A stretch of 64,000 nt of DNA from a virus. Taxonomy: Duplodnaviria; Caudoviricetes. Below, in pieces: positions 2,774 through 26,530 of the stretch (the stretch's first letter is position 1; the number at the start of each line of letters is the position of its first letter). Under the pieces are notes generated by a model. The model searched no databases. It saw only the letters and a list, made by a program, of their open reading frames with translations, and was not told the DNA's origin. A program made the translations under genes and the position numbers. The stretch lies in IMG/VR virus record IMGVR_UViG_3300047557_002530; one strand, given 5' to 3'.

Positions 2774-3433
2774 ATGGCAAAATTACAAAACGCAATTCAT
2801 CTTCGTCCAACATTCGAAGATTTTAATATTCAGCATTATATTGAAACTGGAACTGGTGGAATCCTAGATTCATATGGTCAGAATTCATTACTGCAAGTAT
2901 CCCAACTTCAAAAATCTGACCTGAAAATGCATTCTATTGAAATTCTTGATAGAATTTATAATGAAGCAGTGGATTATTTTAAAGATAATTCTAATGTTTG
3001 TATGCATCTTGGAAATAGTCACGATGAACTGCCAAAAGTTCTTGATGAATTGGATGAAAATCCCGCATTGTTTTTTCTAGATGCACATTTTCCCGATTCA
3101 TATCGCGACGAGCATAATCGTGAAGTAATTCGTGATGACCCAGATTATATTAAAATTCCTCTTGAAGGAGAACTACGTATTCTTTGTCAGAAGCGTGATG
3201 TGAGTAAGGATATTATTGTCATTGATGATATTCGTATTTACAAAGAAGGTCCATATGAGAATGGAAACTTTGAAAACAAAGCACTGCACGGAGGGGAGAG
3301 TCTCGATTTTGTTTATGAACTTCTAGATGAAACTCATATTGTTGTAGAGTCTTATCTTCAGGAAGGATATTTGATTTGCTTCCCTGTCAATACAGATGAG
3401 CAATCTCTTCGCAAATATGTTGTTGGTGCCTGA
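2774..3433 (+). CDS. putative class I SAM-dependent methyltransferase-like protein
   Basis: IETGT motif I-like, FFLDAH and IVIDD motifs. Confidence 0.55.
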   Translation: MAKLQNAIHLRPTFEDFNIQHYIETGTGGILDSYGQNSLLQVSQLQKSDLKMHSIEILDRIYNEAVDYFKDNSNVCMHLGNSHDELPKVLDELDENPALFFLDAHFPDSYRDEHNREVIRDDPDYIKIPLEGELRILCQKRDVSKDIIVIDDIRIYKEGPYENGNFENKALHGGESLDFVYELLDETHIVVESYLQEGYLICFPVNTDEQSLRKYVVGA

Positions 3434-4293
3434 TGAAACTTTACAACTGTAAATATGTTGTAGCAAAAGGAACAACCGGTAGATATGCCGGTTGTGATTT
3501 ACTTGCTCATCCAGAGATTAATGAATTGTATTGTCTCTGGAATTGTGGTTTTTATTCAAATGAATTTCAAGTTTTTAATTCTCTTCTTGTCCTTTTGAAA
3601 CATGGAATTATTCCAGAAAGAATAGATTATTCCTTGGGATATCGTCATTTTAAGAAAGATCCAAATCAAGACATTTACTCTGATTTTCATAAAATTGATG
3701 ATAAAATAGATCTAGATTTATTTGTCGATATTCCCCTTCCTGATTCCAATAAATGTCAATTTGATCTTTATCGTTTTGATGTTTATAATAAAATTAAAGA
3801 TAGATTTTTTGGACCAAGTGATCTTATTTTAGAGAGAAAAAATATCTTGATTGATAAGTATAAATTTGATCCACAGAAAACTATTTCAGTTTTATACAGA
3901 GGAACTGATAAATCTACTGAGTTACAATTAGGATCTCCAACAGAATATTTGAAAGTTGTAAAGAATATTTTAAAAGACAACCCAAATTTTAAAGTTCTTT
4001 TGCAAACAGATCAGACTCAAGTTATTCAATATTTTTATGATCAACTTGGTGATATACTAATTACCTTTGAAGAAACTCCATCAACAGCATCAAATAAAGT
4101 TATTTGGAGTTTGATGGAACAGTCAGGCAAAGATTCTATTGATTGGTCTCAGTGGTTTGATGCAGCATTAAGATGTGTATCTGAATGTAAATATCTTGTA
4201 AACCATACAGGTAATGTCGCATTTTTTGCTAATTTATATCGAGGAAATGTAGATAAAGTCTATCAATTTAATGAAAATGGAGTTCTAATATGA
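3433..4293 (+). CDS. putative glycosyltransferase (NodZ/O-fucosyltransferase-like fold)
   Basis: SVLYRGTDK motif, LLQTDQ, C-terminal 'ECKYLVNHTGN' pattern. Confidence 0.55.
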   Translation: MKLYNCKYVVAKGTTGRYAGCDLLAHPEINELYCLWNCGFYSNEFQVFNSLLVLLKHGIIPERIDYSLGYRHFKKDPNQDIYSDFHKIDDKIDLDLFVDIPLPDSNKCQFDLYRFDVYNKIKDRFFGPSDLILERKNILIDKYKFDPQKTISVLYRGTDKSTELQLGSPTEYLKVVKNILKDNPNFKVLLQTDQTQVIQYFYDQLGDILITFEETPSTASNKVIWSLMEQSGKDSIDWSQWFDAALRCVSECKYLVNHTGNVAFFANLYRGNVDKVYQFNENGVLI

Positions 4294-4868
4294 TTAGTAT
4301 AAAAGGTGAATTGAAAAAAATCTTGTCTCTTGAAACTATATCTTGGGACAATACATACTTTAAAAACGTCACTTCTCATGTTCAAAATGAAGGACTCTGG
4401 TTGGAGTTTGGAGTTTGTTCTGGAAGAACCATTAATTTAATATCAGAGTGTACTAATAATACGGTATATGGATTTGATAGTTTTTATGGTCTTCCAGAAG
4501 ATTGGGGGAATCACCAAGAAAAAGGAACTTATTCTAGAGAAGGAAATTTGCCTAGCGTGAATCATAATGTTGAGTTAGTTGTTGGGTTGTTTGAAGATAC
4601 TTTGGATTCTTTCTTGGAAGAGCACAAAGGTCCAATTGCATATCTTCATTTGGATGCCGATTTATATTCTTCAACAAAATTTGTTTTGGATAAACTTTAT
4701 GATAGAATAGTTGAAGGAACAGTCATATCTTTTGACGAAATCTATAACTATCCGGAGTATATGGATCACGAAATCAAAGCCTGGGTAGAATTTTGCAATG
4801 AACACAAAATTTCTTCAAAATGGATTTTGAAAACTCCTCATGAACAAGCAACTTGCATAGTAAAATGA
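4290..4868 (+). CDS. TylF/MycF-like O-methyltransferase
   Basis: LEFGVCSG, YGFDSFYGLPEDW, LHLDADLYSST, FDE motifs. Confidence 0.8.
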   Translation: MISIKGELKKILSLETISWDNTYFKNVTSHVQNEGLWLEFGVCSGRTINLISECTNNTVYGFDSFYGLPEDWGNHQEKGTYSREGNLPSVNHNVELVVGLFEDTLDSFLEEHKGPIAYLHLDADLYSSTKFVLDKLYDRIVEGTVISFDEIYNYPEYMDHEIKAWVEFCNEHKISSKWILKTPHEQATCIVK

Positions 4869-20686: not shown

Positions 20687-20800
20687 TCACTTCTTCTTGC
20701 CACCATTCTTTGCTTTTTTCGCAGTCGCATTACCTTGATTTTGTTTGGATTGCTTGCCCCCAGCAGAACCCTTCTTACCTTTGTTTGCAGACTTTGACAC
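20687..20800 (-). CDS. 37-aa Lys/Gly-rich basic peptide
   Basis: GTG-start frame SKSANKGKKGSAGGKQSKQNQGNATAKKAKNGGKKK*; fits better than the track ORF 20617..20805. Confidence 0.55.
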   Translation of the reverse strand: MSKSANKGKKGSAGGKQSKQNQGNATAKKAKNGGKKK

Positions 20801-20879
20801 TGCACCGCCCCATATGATACAATGATATTTAGGAAAAACTGTTCCTATTTATACTGTGCCACCTAGGCAATTCGACCTA

Positions 20880-20929
20880 TTGACACCGCTTTCTGGTCGT
20901 GCTATCATAAATAGGTAAACAAATGTTAC
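20880..20929 (+). promoter_or_regulatory. psbA promoter (sigma70-type plus late core plus HLR1-like box)
   Basis: TTGACA(20880)-17-TATCAT(20903) overlapping TAAATA; TAGGTAAA-CA-AATGTTAC (20912-20929). Confidence 0.65.
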
Positions 20930-20968
20930 GAAACGCTAACGATTCTTAACATTGTTAAACACCCGCTA

Positions 20969-21062
20969 ACCGAGACCTATGGGTGTATAAAAACGTCTCT
21001 CATACCCACAGTGGAGGGTGCTGTGGGGAATAATCGTATCAGTTCGTCCCCCCGAACTTTTA
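20969..21062 (+). ncRNA. PhotoRC-II-like psbA leader RNA
   Basis: GAGAC...GTCTC stem, CCCACAG/CTGTGGG hairpin around GAGGGTG, AGTTCG/CGAACT hairpin, directly 5' of psbA. Confidence 0.7.
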
Positions 21063-21080
21063 ACTAACTCTCTTAAACAA

Positions 21081-22160
21081 ATGACTGCTACAATTTCACG
21101 TCAACAACAATCGAATACTTGGGAACAATTCTGCAACTGGGTTACTAGCACTGATAACCGTCTCTATGTAGGTTGGTTCGGAGTCCTGATGATTCCAACA
21201 TTGCTCGCCGCAACAATCTGCTTCATCATCGCATTTGTCGGTGCTCCCCCTGTAGACATTGATGGAATCCGTGAACCAGTCGCTGGTTCTCTAATGTATG
21301 GAAACAACATCATCTCTGGTGCTGTTATTCCTTCGTCCAACGCGATTGGACTGCACTTCTACCCCATCTGGGAAGCTGCTTCACTTGATGAGTGGCTTTA
21401 CAACGGCGGACCTTTCCAACTGGTAGTGTTCCACTTCCTCATCGGCATCTATGCTTATATGGGTCGTGAATGGGAACTCTCATACCGCCTAGGTATGCGT
21501 CCTTGGATCTGTGTTGCTTACTCTGCACCTGTTGCTGCTGCCAGCGCAGTGTTCCTAGTCTATCCTTTCGGTCAAGGTTCTTTCTCTGATGCAATGCCTC
21601 TGGGTATCTCTGGTACCTTCAACTACATGCTTGTTTTCCAGGCAGAACATAACATCCTGATGCACCCCTTCCACATGCTTGGAGTTGCTGGTGTCTTCGG
21701 TGGTTCACTGTTCTCTGCAATGCACGGTTCTCTAGTTACTTCCTCACTGGTTCGTGAAACCACCGAGCAAGAGTCGCAGAACTATGGTTACAAGTTCGGT
21801 CAAGAAGAAGAGACTTATAACATCGTTGCAGCACACGGTTATTTCGGTCGCCTGATCTTCCAATATGCTTCCTTCAATAACTCTCGTTCGCTACACTTCT
21901 TCCTTGCTGCTTGGCCTGTTGTCGGTATCTGGTTCACTGCTCTTGGTGTTAGCACCATGGCCTTTAACTTAAATGGCTTTAATTTCAACCAGTCTCTGCT
22001 TGATAGTCAGGGTCGTGTAGTTAACACCTGGGCTGATGTTCTTAACCGTGCTGGACTGGGAATGGAAGTGATGCACGAGAGAAATGCACATAACTTTCCT
22101 TTGGACCTGGCTGCTGCCGAAGCAACTCCTGTTGCTCTAACTGCACCTTCTATCGGTTGA
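21081..22160 (+). CDS. psbA: photosystem II D1 protein (intronless, 359 aa)
   Basis: [35 protein letters not shown]; start at ATG 21081. Confidence 0.99.
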
Positions 22161-22185
22161 GTTTCGTAAAAACTGAATAATCTAA

Positions 22186-22224
22186 AAGGAGGGACTTGCA
22201 AAAGTCCCTTTTTTGCTATATAAT
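22186..22224 (+). terminator. psbA terminator overlapping a sigma70-type promoter for the HEG
   Basis: AGGGACTT-GCA-AAAGTCCCT-T tract; TTGCAA(22196)-17-TATAAT(22219). Confidence 0.75.
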
Positions 22225-22254
22225 AATTGAAGTTAAGAAATCAAAGATTGAATT

Positions 22255-22683
22255 ATGAAAACTTGCAACATTTGTGGAGAAACGAAATCACTTGATGAGT
22301 ATTATATCAATAATTTTGGATACCCTCACGGTAAATGTAAAAAGTGCTATGTTAAAAAACAGCAAGAAAAATATGACCCAATGAAAAAAAGAAACGAAAA
22401 CTTAAAAAGATGTTATGGAATAACACTCCAAGAATATAATGAAATGTTAGATAATCAAAATGGTAAATGTGCCACTTGTGGAACTACTGAACCAGGAGGT
22501 AGAAAATCTGGTAGGGGCGGTGGTGCTGATGTATTTGTAGTAGATCACTGCCACGATACTGGTAAAGTTAGAGGTCTTCTTTGTCATAGTTGTAATAGGG
22601 CTATGGGACTATTAGGAGATAATGTAAGCGTTATTGAAAGTATGATTAAATACCTTGAGCAGCACGAAATTAATGTCTCATAA
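22255..22683 (+). CDS. Endonuclease VII-family homing endonuclease (F-CphI-like)
   Basis: CNIC...CKKC, YGIT..EY, CATC, VDHCHDTGKVRGLLCHSCN; position just 3' of psbA. Confidence 0.88.
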   Translation: MKTCNICGETKSLDEYYINNFGYPHGKCKKCYVKKQQEKYDPMKKRNENLKRCYGITLQEYNEMLDNQNGKCATCGTTEPGGRKSGRGGGADVFVVDHCHDTGKVRGLLCHSCNRAMGLLGDNVSVIESMIKYLEQHEINVS

Positions 22684-22795
22684 TACTCAACACGAACCTA
22701 TGCCTAACTGGGTAATCTGGGTAGGCGTAGGTATGATGGTATTTACGGTTCTTGTTTTTGTCTTATTCACTCTTGGGCAAATTTACTGGGGATAA
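22673..22795 (+). CDS. 40-aa single-TM peptide
   Basis: MSHNTQHEPMPNWVIWVGVGMMVFTVLVFVLFTLGQIYWG*. Confidence 0.55.
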   Translation: MSHNTQHEPMPNWVIWVGVGMMVFTVLVFVLFTLGQIYWG

Positions 22796-22863
22796 GTGCT
22801 AATACTCATTGACTCTTATTATGAAGTATTGTAAACTAAATATGAGAAATCACATAGGAGGCT

Positions 22864-23010
22864 ATGACTTCTTCAACACTTTCACAACCAATTCAACAAA
22901 GGGGGTGGTTTGATGTCCTGGATGACTGGCTTAAACGAGATCGCTTTGTATTTGTGGGTTGGTCTGGACTATTACTTTTTCCCACTGCTTATTTGGCCCT
23001 TGACTGGTAG
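22864..23010 (+). pseudogene. psbD: truncated 5' copy of psbD (46 homologous codons, then stop)
   Basis: [48 protein letters not shown]; RBS AGGAGG. Confidence 0.93.
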
Positions 23011-23144
23011 GACTGCTGAATGACTTTTCTGGGATTGTATCTAATCTTTATTGGTGTGAAGGGATTGTTTAGAGATTTACAGAGATACAGAGAACAAACT
23101 GATAATAGGTAAAAATATAAAAGACACTTTCTAAACTGGAACAG

Positions 23145-23179
23145 GGGCACTTCGCAGGTGCCCTTTTTGATGGTATAAT
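23145..23179 (+). promoter_or_regulatory. hairpin/T-tract overlapping an early-type promoter
   Basis: GGGCAC-TTCGCAG-GTGCCC-TTTTT; TTCGCA(23151)-17-TATAAT(23174). Confidence 0.55.
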
Positions 23180-23203
23180 ACTCTCATATACAAAGAGTTT
23201 CAA

Positions 23204-23599
23204 ATGCTAAAAACTAAAACTGTAAAGATAGTAAGTGTGAGTGATTGGGATGACTTTGTAATCCTTATCTATGGAAAGCATTACAGTTTTCAACAACAAG
23301 ATGGGTGTAAATCAAGAGGAACTGCTTATTTTACTGTTCCAAATCAATATGATGCGGAAGAGTTTGATAGTGAGGCAACTACAATCCCATTTGAAGTTAA
23401 TGGTGAAGAAATGGGTGTGAGTTTTGAAACTTGGTTGAATACAAATTTGGAGGATACTGCTTCACACTTTGAATCTGATTGGGAGAATAAGTTGTTCTGG
23501 GAAAGGAATTTTTATCCAGATGTAAACACAATTGTTTGGGACTTATACAAACGAGGATTGCTTGAAGAAGGTGAATATATGATTGATATTGATTGGTGA
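23204..23599 (+). CDS. hypothetical phage protein (cargo inside the psbD insertion)
   Basis: 131-aa acidic ORF with its own promoter. Confidence 0.75.
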   Translation: MLKTKTVKIVSVSDWDDFVILIYGKHYSFQQQDGCKSRGTAYFTVPNQYDAEEFDSEATTIPFEVNGEEMGVSFETWLNTNLEDTASHFESDWENKLFWERNFYPDVNTIVWDLYKRGLLEEGEYMIDIDW

Positions 23600-23660
23600 C
23601 TAAAAAGTAAAAATATTCATTTGTATAAATAATAATGTAGTTAACACAGTAGTAGTAAGA

Positions 23661-24242
23661 ATGAAACATAAGCACCATATTATTCCAAGACATATGGGTG
23701 GTAGTGATGACCCATCAAATCTTATTGAACTGACTGTGGAAGAACACGCAGAGGCACACAGAAAGTTGTGGGAGCAATATGGTAATATCAAAGATTATTG
23801 TGCTTGGAAAGGTTTAGAAGGAACTATTGGTAAAGAAGAGATTGTAAGGTTGCTGATGGACCCAACTGGAAGAGTTCATACAGAAGAAACCAAGAAGAAA
23901 ATGAGTGAGGCACATAAAGGCAAACCAAAGCATACACCTGAAAGTAAAGAAAAAATAAGTGAAGCAAGAAAAGGAAAGCCTTTGAGTGAGGAGCATAAAA
24001 GAAAAATAGGTGAGGCAGGTTTAGGTAATAAAAGATGTCTTGGAAATAAACTAACAGAAGAGCACAAAGAAAAACTTTCTAAAAGTATGAAAGGAAATAA
24101 AAATGCTTGTGGTCCTCAAAAAGTTAGTGAAGAAGCAAAGAAAAATAGAAGTGAAGCAACCAAAGAAAGATGGAGAAAATATAGAGAACAAAAAGGATTT
24201 GACCCTAACAAACCTATTGATGGTAGATACTCTAAAATATAG
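23661..24242 (+). CDS. HNH-type homing endonuclease with multiple NUMOD3 repeats
   Basis: [31 protein letters not shown]; repeats [48 protein letters not shown]; TATAAATA at 23624. Confidence 0.88.
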
Positions 24243-24342
24243 TGCCCGCAAGGGCACCTGCCGAAGGCAGTAAGTATAAATACACTTCCCTTTTTATCCA
24301 GTTTCCATTACAATAAATATGTAAAGTAATGTAAAGGAGGCT

Positions 24343-25407
24343 ATGACTTCTTCTGTTTTACAGACACCCTCCCAATCACAGCGTGGATGGTTTGATGTCC
24401 TTGATGATTGGTTGAAAAGGGACAGATTTGTGTTCGTAGGTTGGTCTGGCCTACTTTTATTTCCAACAGCATACCTCGCACTTGGTGGGTGGCTTACTGG
24501 TATTACATTTATCACTAGTTGGTATACACACGGTATTGCTTCAAGTTTTTTAGAAGGTTGTAATTTCTTAACAGCTGCGTTGAGTACCCCAGCAGATGCT
24601 CTCGGACATTCCCTTCTACTTCTCTGGGGTCCTGAGTCTCAAGGGGATTTCATCAGGTGGTGCCAACTTGGGGGACTCTGGACTTTTGTGGCGCTCCACG
24701 GATCTTTCTCTCTGATTGGATTCATGCTTCGTCAGTTTGAGATTGCTCGTCTTGTAGGCATTCGTCCTTATAATGCTATTGCATTCTCTGGACCCATTGC
24801 GGTCTTTGTGAGTGTCTTCCTGATGTATCCTCTGGGTCAATCCAGTTGGTTCTTTGCACCATCGTTTGGTGTTGCTGCTATCTTCAGGTTCCTTCTGTTC
24901 CTTCAGGGTTTCCACAACTGGACCCTCAACCCCTTCCATATGATGGGAGTTGCTGGTATACTGGGTGGAGCACTGCTCTGTGCTATTCACGGAGCAACCG
25001 TAGAAAACACACTATTTGAAGATGGTGACCAAGCAAATACCTTCAAAGCATTTGAACCGACACAGGAAGAAGAGACCTACTCTATGGTTACTGCTAACAG
25101 ATTCTGGTCTCAAATCTTCGGTATTGCGTTTAGTAATAAGCGTTGGCTTCACTTTTTTATGCTATTTGTTCCTGTTATGGGTTTGTGGACTTCCAGCATC
25201 GGTATCATTGGTCTTGCCCTTAATCTTCGTGCTTATGATTTTGTAAGTCAGGAGATTCGTGCTGCAGAAGATCCGGAATTTGAGACCTTCGTAACAAAGA
25301 ACATATTATTGAATGAGGGAATTCGTGCTTGGATGGCACCTGTAGACCAACCTGGAGCAAACTTTGTATTTCCAGAGGAAGTTTTGCCTCGTGGAAATGC
25401 TTTATGA
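24343..25407 (+). CDS. psbD: photosystem II D2 protein with divergent 5' and 3' ends
   Basis: [23 protein letters not shown] ... [11 protein letters not shown] ... [10 protein letters not shown]. Confidence 0.99.
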
Positions 25408-25436
25408 TATAAATAATTCTATCGTGCGGTAGAATT

Positions 25437-25883
25437 ATGGAAAAGATGGGAATGCTTACCATTCTTGATGAATGGTCTGATAAGGTTCACAGATACTGTA
25501 AAGTTCAGTGTGAATGTGGAACTATAAAAACAGTTCGCAGATCATCTATGAAACCTGGACAAACAGTATCTTGTGGATGTTATAGACGAGAACTTGATAG
25601 AAAGAAGGGGAGAGATCTTCGTTCACCTATGTGGTCTCGGGCAAAATATAGAGCAAAACAAAAGGGTCTGGATTTTAATATCACAAAAGAAGATATTGTT
25701 ATTCCAGACACCTGCCCTTTGTTAGGCACTCCTATGGAATCGCCATCATTAGATCGTATTGATTCTTCCAAAGGATATATCAAAGGTAATGTGTGGGTCA
25801 TCAGTAATAGAGCAAATACTTTAAAAAATGATGCTACATTACAAGAACTCAAAACATTAGTTGAAAATCTGGAGAAACTATGA
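25437..25883 (+). CDS. free-standing HNH/His-Me-type homing endonuclease (paralog of 17110..17634)
   Basis: CECG...SCGC, TCPLL, SLDRIDSSKGYIKGNVWVISNRAN; TATAAATA at 25408 directly after the psbD stop. Confidence 0.82.
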   Translation: MEKMGMLTILDEWSDKVHRYCKVQCECGTIKTVRRSSMKPGQTVSCGCYRRELDRKKGRDLRSPMWSRAKYRAKQKGLDFNITKEDIVIPDTCPLLGTPMESPSLDRIDSSKGYIKGNVWVISNRANTLKNDATLQELKTLVENLEKL

Positions 25884-26026
25884 AAGATACTTCTACAAAT
25901 CAACTTCCACCAAATCAAAAATACATTGGGTGGAAAGAAGTAAATGAAAAAGAATTTGATGAGTTGTTTCCTCCCATCCAAAAGAAAAATCGTGAGGAAG
26001 TTCTACCGCGAGGTAATGCACTCTAA
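25880..26026 (+). pseudogene. 48-aa ORF ending in the D2 C-terminal decapeptide (psbD 3' remnant at 25994-26026)
   Basis: ...[15 protein letters not shown], encoded GAG GAA GTT CTA CCG CGA GGT AAT GCA CTC TAA. Confidence 0.88.
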
Positions 26027-26034
26027 AAATAAAT

Positions 26035-26062
26035 AAAAGGAGTTCTCTGAACTCCTTTTTTT
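26035..26062 (+). terminator. intrinsic terminator following the psbD 3' remnant
   Basis: AAAAGGAGTTC-TCT-GAACTCCTTTT-TTT. Confidence 0.85.
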
Positions 26063-26137
26063 ATGCTCCTTATTCTTATTCTTTTTCAACTCTTTGGAAT
26101 CCTAATGTTTATATTATCTGTTATGCAAGACCTATGA
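26063..26137 (+). CDS. 24-aa hydrophobic peptide
   Basis: MLLILILFQLFGILMFILSVMQDL*, ATGA-coupled to the next ORF. Confidence 0.4.
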   Translation: MLLILILFQLFGILMFILSVMQDL

Positions 26138-26253
26138 TAACTTCTACAACACCATATAAATTGGCAGAGATCATTAGAGATACTTGGCCAAACCTTTACA
26201 GACCGCCAATAAAGACTTATAATCAATCAAAAGCACAAGAAAAGAATGTATGA
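26134..26253 (+). CDS. 39-aa hypothetical peptide
   Basis: MITSTTPYKLAEIIRDTWPNLYRPP...*, overlapping neighbours on both sides. Confidence 0.5.
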   Translation: MITSTTPYKLAEIIRDTWPNLYRPPIKTYNQSKAQEKNV

Positions 26254-26530
26254 CTATTGGGTGGTGACAGACAAAACCACAGGTAGAGTAATCGCTCATT
26301 GCGGGGAAGAGAATGATGCATTGATGTTAGTTGGATTTGATAAAGATAAAAGAAATTATCGTAAACAAAAGTTTATTCTGGATCAGGTCATTACAGTAAC
26401 ATCAACAACAGATAAACAACTTCCTGGTCAATTGGGTTTACCTGCAGCAAAAGAAGAACTTCCTCCTATGGATCTTCAACAACAAGTATGGTTGCCTGAG
26501 GGACAGGGAATTCCAGTTAACGCTAAATAA
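26246..26530 (+). CDS. hypothetical cyanophage protein
   Basis: 94-aa ORF in operon context. Confidence 0.7.
   Translation: MYDYWVVTDKTTGRVIAHCGEENDALMLVGFDKDKRNYRKQKFILDQVITVTSTTDKQLPGQLGLPAAKEELPPMDLQQQVWLPEGQGIPVNAK

Follow-up and report, generated by a model that had tools for sequence, protein, structure and literature searches.

Gene hybrids created by mobile endonuclease open reading frames (ORFs), termed mORFs, are known from fungal mitochondria, with examples in atp6 of Allomyces macrogynus and in atp6, atp9, cox2 and nad3 of Glomus (PMC3630166; related work in PMC6279837). In these hybrids an endonuclease ORF has entered the end of a conserved gene and brought along a foreign version of that end, which is read in frame, and the native end has stayed behind the ORF. 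Here we describe a comparable arrangement around the photosystem gene psbD, which encodes protein D2, in a stretch of 64,000 nucleotides (nt), hereafter called the window, from the IMG/VR virus record IMGVR_UViG_3300047557_002530 (Caudoviricetes). The window corresponds to positions 9474-73473 of a 92-kb linear viral contig obtained by metagenome assembly and estimated to be 43% complete. Gene content and database matches point to a T4-like cyanophage with hosts of the Synechococcus type, and the stretch is present in lake and freshwater metagenome runs of about ten studies. It probably represents a freshwater T4-like cyanophage whose psbD gene was invaded from both sides by cassettes carrying free-standing homing endonuclease genes. 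Positions given below are those of the window, and all genes, gene fragments, hairpins, boxes and promoter-like sites lie on its + strand.

Intragenic recombination in cyanophage photosystem genes was reportedly described by Zeidner in 2005. The portion of Sullivan 2006 considered here (PMC1484495) presents cyanophage psbD as mosaic and patchy in G+C; as in the window, segments of the gene differ in their nearest relatives and in third-position G+C, but that portion names no nuclease as the agent, whereas in the window two breakpoints are physically tied to nuclease cassettes. The free-standing homing endonucleases of T4-like phages (SegF, SegG and MobE, and F-CphI next to psbA of phage S-PM2) combine an HNH domain with a DNA-binding module, are encoded by separate genes whose presence varies among relatives, and co-convert the DNA that flanks them (PMC2988022), co-conversion being the footprint of homing. 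One-sided homing, with illegitimate junctions at microhomology, has been documented in phage T4 (Parker et al. 1999, reviewed in PMC2988022).

The complete psbD gene of the window (24343-25407; Pfam Photo_RC, E = 5.7e-72) is, by all appearances, a three-part hybrid composed of a foreign 5' block (psbD nt 1-255; 24343-24597), a core belonging to the resident backbone (nt 256-979; 24598-25321) and a foreign 3' block of about 86 nt (nt 980-1065; 25322-25407). The first of these joints is revealed by L003, one of the related contigs, designated by L-numbers, that were compared with the window. From 23145 onwards, across a cargo gene, a nuclease gene and psbD nt 1-255, the two sequences differ at 7 of 1453 nt, and within psbD nt 1-255 they do not differ at all. 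Past nt 255 there are 125 mismatches in 810 nt (15%), placing a sharp breakpoint at nt 255/256, and the genes downstream of psbD are only 83% identical. Such near-identity marks the segment 23145-24597 as a block recently shared by two phage backgrounds, of the kind left by co-conversion during homing. A search in other phages for the same cassette with the same psbD 5' end, which the initial annotation of this DNA had proposed, is answered by L003.

A remnant of the psbD start that this block displaced appears to lie upstream of it. The resident psbD leader (22809-22862), with a promoter-like site TTGACT-17-TAAACT (22809-22837) and a ribosome-binding site (RBS) AGGAGG (22856-22861), now serves a 48-codon ORF (22864-23010, stop codon TAG at 23008) which contains psbD nt 1-139, and in every alignment the homology to psbD breaks off sharply at 23002, the equivalent of psbD nt 139. 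Codons 1-46 of this 5' stump specify the commonest D2 N-terminus of nuclease-free phages in a panel of 93 sequences, and a stump with its own RBS, as read in the initial annotation, is indeed present. Because the stump is 97.8% identical to psbD of nuclease-free contig L198 (and 93% to that of S-PM2), and because the upstream gene orf46, the leader and the stump align colinearly with orf46 and psbD as arranged in about 20 nuclease-free contigs, we take it to be the resident psbD allele in its native position. The two 5' copies of psbD are 74% identical over 107 nt. They share a 19-nt exact repeat (at 22856 and 24335), which had been noticed in the initial annotation. This repeat was considered as an insertion scar or att site and rejected: the same 19 nt, or one-letter variants, also precede psbD in nuclease-free contigs, so the repeat represents the conserved RBS and start region of the gene.

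Separate phylogenies of the parts of psbD gave consistent results. In the tree of nt 1-139, the stump groups with nuclease-free L190, L168, L198 and L187 (support 0.88), and the working copy with L003, L009, L011, L163, L004 and L164 (support 1.0), a clade that is mostly nuclease-bearing. For nt 256-969, the tree places the window with the nuclease-free contigs L217, L232, L187, L182, L191 and L178 and with L013 (support 0.95), L187 being common to the stump clade and the core clade. Stump and core, which both fall with nuclease-free phages, evidently share relatives, and the working 5' end appears to have another ancestry; this is the opposite of the grouping of new 5' end with core, and of a foreign stump, that had been named beforehand as speaking against a rebuilt gene start. 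The working 5' region is at most 75% identical to any of 418 phage psbD records (median of 72% to the panel), and the core reaches 83%. When similarity to the window was compared between nuclease-bearing and nuclease-free alleles, the strongest split was found at nt 140-255 (p = 3e-7), a weaker one at nt 1-139 (p = 0.04-0.002) and none in the core (p = 0.2-0.5), with p-values that overstate independence because the sequences are related.

Base composition follows the same partition. The G+C content at third codon positions (GC3) tracks the three parts of psbD, with 0.31 in nt 1-255, 0.42 in the core and 0.23 in nt 970-1062 (25312-25404); that of the nuclease genes is 0.22-0.25. Codon TTA accounts for 4 of 85 codons in nt 1-255 versus 1 of 238 in the core. 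The initial annotation had described the new 5' end as recoded by AGG, AGA and TTA codons, of which the TTA excess and the lower GC3 hold; for AGA and AGG the counts in the new 5' end are too small to show anything, and the signal as a whole is weaker than had been stated. The unusual residues pointed out at the same time (GITFIT, SSFLEG, AALS) are real and largely nuclease-linked: GITF, SSFLEG and AALS occur elsewhere in the panel only in nuclease-linked contigs, as do D2 residues I54, F69 and L80 (window 24502-24582), and the isoleucine of FIT (I57) is confined to the window and L003. Towards the other end of the protein (window 25291-25359), V315 is found in the window only, and G336 and A337 are shared with L167 and L168. 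These non-canonical residues of D2 sit inside the two foreign blocks, and psbD is otherwise intact.

The cassette that separates the stump from the working psbD measures 1.33 kb. An insert of about this size, with a promoter, a cargo gene for 131 amino acids (aa), an HNH-NUMOD3 gene, hairpins and a late promoter, followed by a complete psbD, had been predicted from the sequence, and all of these elements were found where they had been placed. The nuclease gene (23661-24242) encodes 193 aa and forms an independent ORF, flanked by the cargo gene and psbD, with its own hairpins downstream. Its product matches Pfam NUMOD3 in three stretches (E = 1.1e-18) and phrog_655, annotated as 'homing endonuclease' (E = 7.8e-23), and its HHIxPxxxGGSDDxxNL motif is intact in an alignment to a solved HNH domain. 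Among solved structures only a marginal match in the HNH motif was obtained, to a group II intron maturase, and no closer relative. Homologues with 72-85% identity lie directly upstream of psbD in 21 other loci, and 73 of the 80 closest psbD loci have no such nuclease gene. No intron or ribozyme was detected in 20800-26400 by Rfam. In its domains, in the lack of an intron, in its presence or absence among relatives and in the co-conversion of its flank, the gene corresponds to the free-standing homing endonucleases of the T4 Seg/Mob type. For the T4-like examples, no duplication of a neighbouring gene end is mentioned (PMC2988022), and cleavage has been shown for them, whereas for the psbD nucleases it is presumed. 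In isolated phage genomes the cassette was found in none, and only short matches of 74% identity to other nuclease genes were obtained.

The cargo gene (23204-23599; phrog_27943) is preceded by a promoter-like site TTCGCA-17-TATAAT (23151-23179), which overlaps a hairpin with a T-run (23145-23168) read from the sequence. The slot is occupied by different genes in L004 and L036, and a copy of the cargo gene with 95% identity is found in an unrelated context (L084, positions 3207-4393), beside a nuclease gene whose motifs, as we read them, suggest the GIY-YIG type. The cargo protein gave a single sub-threshold hit in Pfam, its PHROG family has no known function, and a protein atlas returned only unnamed viral clusters. 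Its fold was poorly predicted from the single sequence (predicted local distance difference test, pLDDT, of 40) and confidently by AlphaFold2 from an alignment of 45 sequences (pLDDT of 94), a model for which no solved structure was matched (best E = 3.4) and only uncharacterised clusters were retrieved from the AlphaFold DB. Relatives of the cargo gene were also seen in many viral contigs, one of which bears a GVMAG (giant-virus bin) name.

The left end of the cassette (23003-23112) comprises the junction, an RBS and a mini-ORF for a hydrophobic peptide of 30 aa (23020-23112) which is conserved in L004 (1770-1884), L209 and L036 (3250-3343). In a colinear global test the mini-ORF region resembled psbD nt ~84-148 with p = 0.01-0.04 in the relatives and 0.17 in the window, and by local alignment the similarity between mini-ORF and psbD was not significant; as a lead only, the RBS and opening codons of the mini-ORF may go back to an older psbD stump that has since decayed. 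At the right end of the cassette (24242-24342) follow two hairpins read from the sequence (24242-24270), a TATAAATA box (24275-24282), and the working gene's leader with its RBS, 24313-24342 being 97% identical to the leader of nuclease-free L163.

A mirror image of this arrangement is found at the 3' end of psbD. A second TATAAATA box (25408-25415) lies directly after the psbD stop codon, followed by a second free-standing HNH endonuclease gene (25437-25883; 148 aa; phrog_3322, 'endonuclease', E = 2.9e-32) and by a 48-aa ORF (25880-26026) that closes with ten codons repeating the psbD end. Over 26 nt of this 33-nt 3' stump (25994-26026, stop codon included), the identity to the working end is 81%; of the last seven sense codons six differ, as does the stop, all synonymously. 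Behind the stump stands a terminator hairpin (26035-26059) that directly follows psbD in L003, L163 and L167, which are nuclease-free in this place. The psbD end, terminator and downstream genes of L003, a contig without the second HNH gene, align with the window from 25994 onwards, and the working end is not their counterpart; the 33 nt that precede the terminator are therefore the original, now stranded, end of psbD, and the hairpin is its original terminator. The foreign segment has a relative of its own. Positions 25322-25804, which span the last 86 nt of psbD, the box and most of the second nuclease gene, differ from L168 at 10 of 483 nt (98% identical), and to the left of this segment the mismatch is 18-32%. 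Overall, the backgrounds in which this block and the one shared with L003 lie are ~83-85% identical. Taken together, the second HNH gene appears to have arrived with the last ~86 nt of psbD and to have stranded the original 33-nt end and its terminator. The gene is also present in L230, L185 and L180. The same 48-aa ORF with its 3' stump is found in L185 (4560-4720), a nuclease ORF of the second type is fused in frame to the 3' stump in L180 (2440-2600), and L168 and L230 have this type of nuclease without a stump.

The pattern at both ends is best accounted for by the repair of nuclease-induced breaks, homologous on one side and illegitimate on the other, and we regard this reading, the best supported of those considered, as a likely one. 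In a mixed infection, each nuclease would cut or nick a nuclease-free psbD near its end of the gene, and repair of the break would use the nuclease-bearing phage as template. Towards the inside of the gene, repair would start where similarity suffices, leaving donor DNA at nt 1-255 and ~980-1065; on the outer side no homology would be used, the copied cassette being joined illegitimately to the broken end, and the ends of the recipient gene would be left as stumps (nt 1-139 upstream, the last 33 nt downstream). Over nt 1-255 the psbD genes of donor and recipient share only about 64-74% identity, compared with about 85-90% further on. Given a break between nt 139 and 255, the right end would find usable homology only past nt 255, and the left end, consisting of poorly matching psbD 5' sequence, would be joined to the cassette where the stump ends. 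The sequences themselves show the anatomy of the locus, the transferred blocks with their breakpoints, the resident or foreign nature of the parts, the recurrence in other contigs and the reality of the junction; from these we infer that the nucleases cut psbD, that the 5' cut falls at nt 139-255 and that cutting spares the foreign ends. A candidate cut interval of 117 nt would be bracketed by the stump end (nt 139) and the end of the converted tract (nt 255). One-sided homing in T4 offers a precedent, in that homology on one side and poor or no homology on the other led to junctions outside homology; the counterparts here are the sharp end of homology at 23002 and the homologous breakpoint inside psbD. 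The T4 case was an engineered plasmid-phage system with an intron, whereas the psbD cassette is natural and intron-less, and its history is reconstructed from the footprint.

Several observations weigh against this explanation. The 193-aa nuclease scores just under the Pfam HNH cut-off (21.2 versus 21.4 bits), and there is no clear microhomology at the 23002/23003 junction. The left boundary of the transfer shared with L003 lies at or to the left of 23145, where that contig stops. Shared ancestry confounds the association of nuclease presence with allele type, and the nuclease-free contigs L163, L200, L174 and L241 carry the same allele type. The nuclease target could lie outside psbD, for instance in the intergenic leader. 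Finally, since L004-6 and L209, which are 70-78% identical, carry a stump and the same mini-ORF region, the stump of the window may have been inherited, or partly refreshed by recombination, and may predate the L003-type transfer.

The related contigs document how variable such structures are. In L004-6 and L209 a 5' stump is followed by the same mini-ORF region, with psbD homology ending at about nt 83 (nt 139 in the window) and the remainder decayed; a frameshift and an internal stop disrupt the stump of L004-6, and it is shorter in L209, where the stump and mini-ORF are accompanied only by fragments of the HNH-NUMOD3 gene (165-1750), which looks like a decaying stage of the same cassette. 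In L036, orf46 is joined directly to the mini-ORF, so that the cassette exists also in a clean intergenic form; a stump is likewise absent in most nuclease-bearing contigs. The new N-terminal allele of the window, with its leader, occurs without any cassette in L163. The converted tract ends at nt ~158 or 255 depending on the contig. These differences suggest that stumps form repeatedly, or persist and decay. Because the junctions of L004-6 and L209 differ, L036 is stump-free and L163 has the allele without a nuclease, the new 5' end looks like an ordinary donor allele that was co-converted, and not like a purpose-built recoding. Of the proposal in the initial annotation that the element rebuilt the psbD 5' end with a cleavage-resistant version, what stands is that the end travels with the cassette and that the stump is resident; as an account of the outcome the proposal holds up for the most part, as an account of the mechanism in part. 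A mobile unit in which the nuclease is coupled to a recoded, cut-resistant segment of its target gene would be the natural equivalent of synthetic 'home-and-rescue' gene drives; this reading is conceivable but doubtful.

Among other explanations, ordinary illegitimate recombination between co-infecting phages fares best, the psbA-psbD spacer then being a hot spot of module exchange and the nucleases mere passengers. The mosaic, G+C-patchy psbD of Synechococcus myoviruses, as presented in the portion of PMC1484495 cited above, would be in keeping with it, and so would the mosaicism that our identity table displays along the whole of psbD, beyond its ends, the independent shuffling of the cargo slot, and the fact that cutting of psbD is deduced from sequence. 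Against it stands the physical association observed: each stump directly adjoins a nuclease gene, both near-identical transferred blocks consist of a nuclease gene and the adjoining gene end, and stumps recur only in contigs which hold these nuclease genes or their remains. We consider this alternative unlikely.

A selective value of the 5' stump itself, either as the source of a short D2 N-terminal peptide or by providing the mini-ORF and cassette with the promoter and RBS of psbD, might be suspected from its intact promoter-like site, RBS and open frame, from the canonical state of all 46 residues, and from the conservation of the mini-ORF behind it in four lineages. The broken, shortened or missing stumps of the contigs described above are at odds with such a role, and a recent origin, in view of the 97.8% identity to a living allele, explains its good preservation in the window equally well, which makes this an improbable account. 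Still less credit can be given to an assembly chimera of nuclease-free and nuclease-bearing strains brought together through their shared psbD, which a linear, incomplete metagenome assembly would permit, the more so as both strain types occur in the same lakes and the L003 contig breaks at 23145. Three other studies yielded independently assembled contigs that match the window from 22963 on and cover the junction of stump and cassette over 802 nt (2 mismatches), 1024 nt (1 mismatch) and 1698 nt (11 mismatches, up to 24662). The sequences at 23002/23003 offer an assembler no common stretch for a crossover, and related contigs show similar stumps; misassembly, which had been raised at the outset, is thereby largely refuted. 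In one of the samples there is, in addition, a contig with 23002 joined to 24592, i.e. a nuclease-free psbD matching both stump and core. Lastly, a site-specific integrative element that inserts into psbD with a replacement end, in the manner of islands targeting tRNA genes and as suggested in the initial annotation, resembles the present case in outcome (target restored, old end displaced) and might claim the 19-nt exact repeat at both starts, but is scarcely tenable, since the cassette ORFs include no integrase or recombinase in Pfam or PHROG (only nuclease families and unknowns), the repeat is the conserved RBS and start region so that no fixed att core is found at both junctions, and breakpoints vary among carriers as expected of recombination tracts.

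With break repair at nuclease sites as the preferred explanation, the closest parallel is provided by the fungal mORFs. The start and the end of psbD both show an endonuclease ORF flanked by the inserted piece, which is read with the core, and by the displaced native one. Native ends closely resemble those of relatives (91-98% in the fungal cases, PMC3630166; 97.8% for the psbD 5' stump), and the inserted end is far more diverged (64-81% and 70-75% for the psbD 5' end, respectively). The fungal elements reside in organelles, encode LAGLIDADG or GIY-YIG enzymes and are all C-terminal replacements, whereas the present ones are HNH cassettes in a viral photosystem gene of a phage and affect both ends of one gene. 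Replacement of the C-terminal end applies to the second cassette (25322-26026) and not to the 5' cassette; the 5' event is a variant of the mORF gene hybrid, and no plain member, because the N-terminal end and leader were replaced instead of the C-terminal end, and a replaced start needs a promoter, RBS and start codon borne by the cassette. Full-text searches of the literature yielded no account of phages with psbD fragments or duplicated gene ends next to nuclease genes, which is no proof of novelty; gene-end replacement with a stranded stump is known in the literature searched from fungal mitochondria, and not from phages or gene starts. The psbD locus would extend this process to phages and to gene starts, with the cassette supplying the expression signals.

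If the mobile unit were indeed a nuclease together with a cut-resistant segment of its target, the doubtful reading mentioned above, selection to escape cutting would drive the mosaicism and patchy G+C of cyanophage photosystem genes, and could force changes in D2 itself, namely I54, I57, F69 and L80 on the 5' side and V315, G336 and A337 near the lumenal C-terminus. Homing as a driver of photosystem-gene mosaicism is a hypothesis that can be tested on existing lake and ocean metagenomes. There is also a practical aspect, as psbD serves as a marker of cyanophage diversity, and foreign ends and stray fragments can distort both trees and gene calls.

The surroundings of the locus comprise psbA (21018-22160), with a PhotoRC-II RNA motif in its leader (20947-21041; Rfam RF01717, 81 bits, E = 1.3e-13), an Endo VII-family nuclease gene (22255-22683) directly 3' of psbA, and orf46 (22655-22795; phrog_7358), a small membrane-type ORF. 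The Endo VII-family gene has the position of F-CphI in phage S-PM2. In one lake contig 22079 is joined to 22673, apparently without this gene, and the presence of a nuclease on the psbA side may accordingly vary as well.

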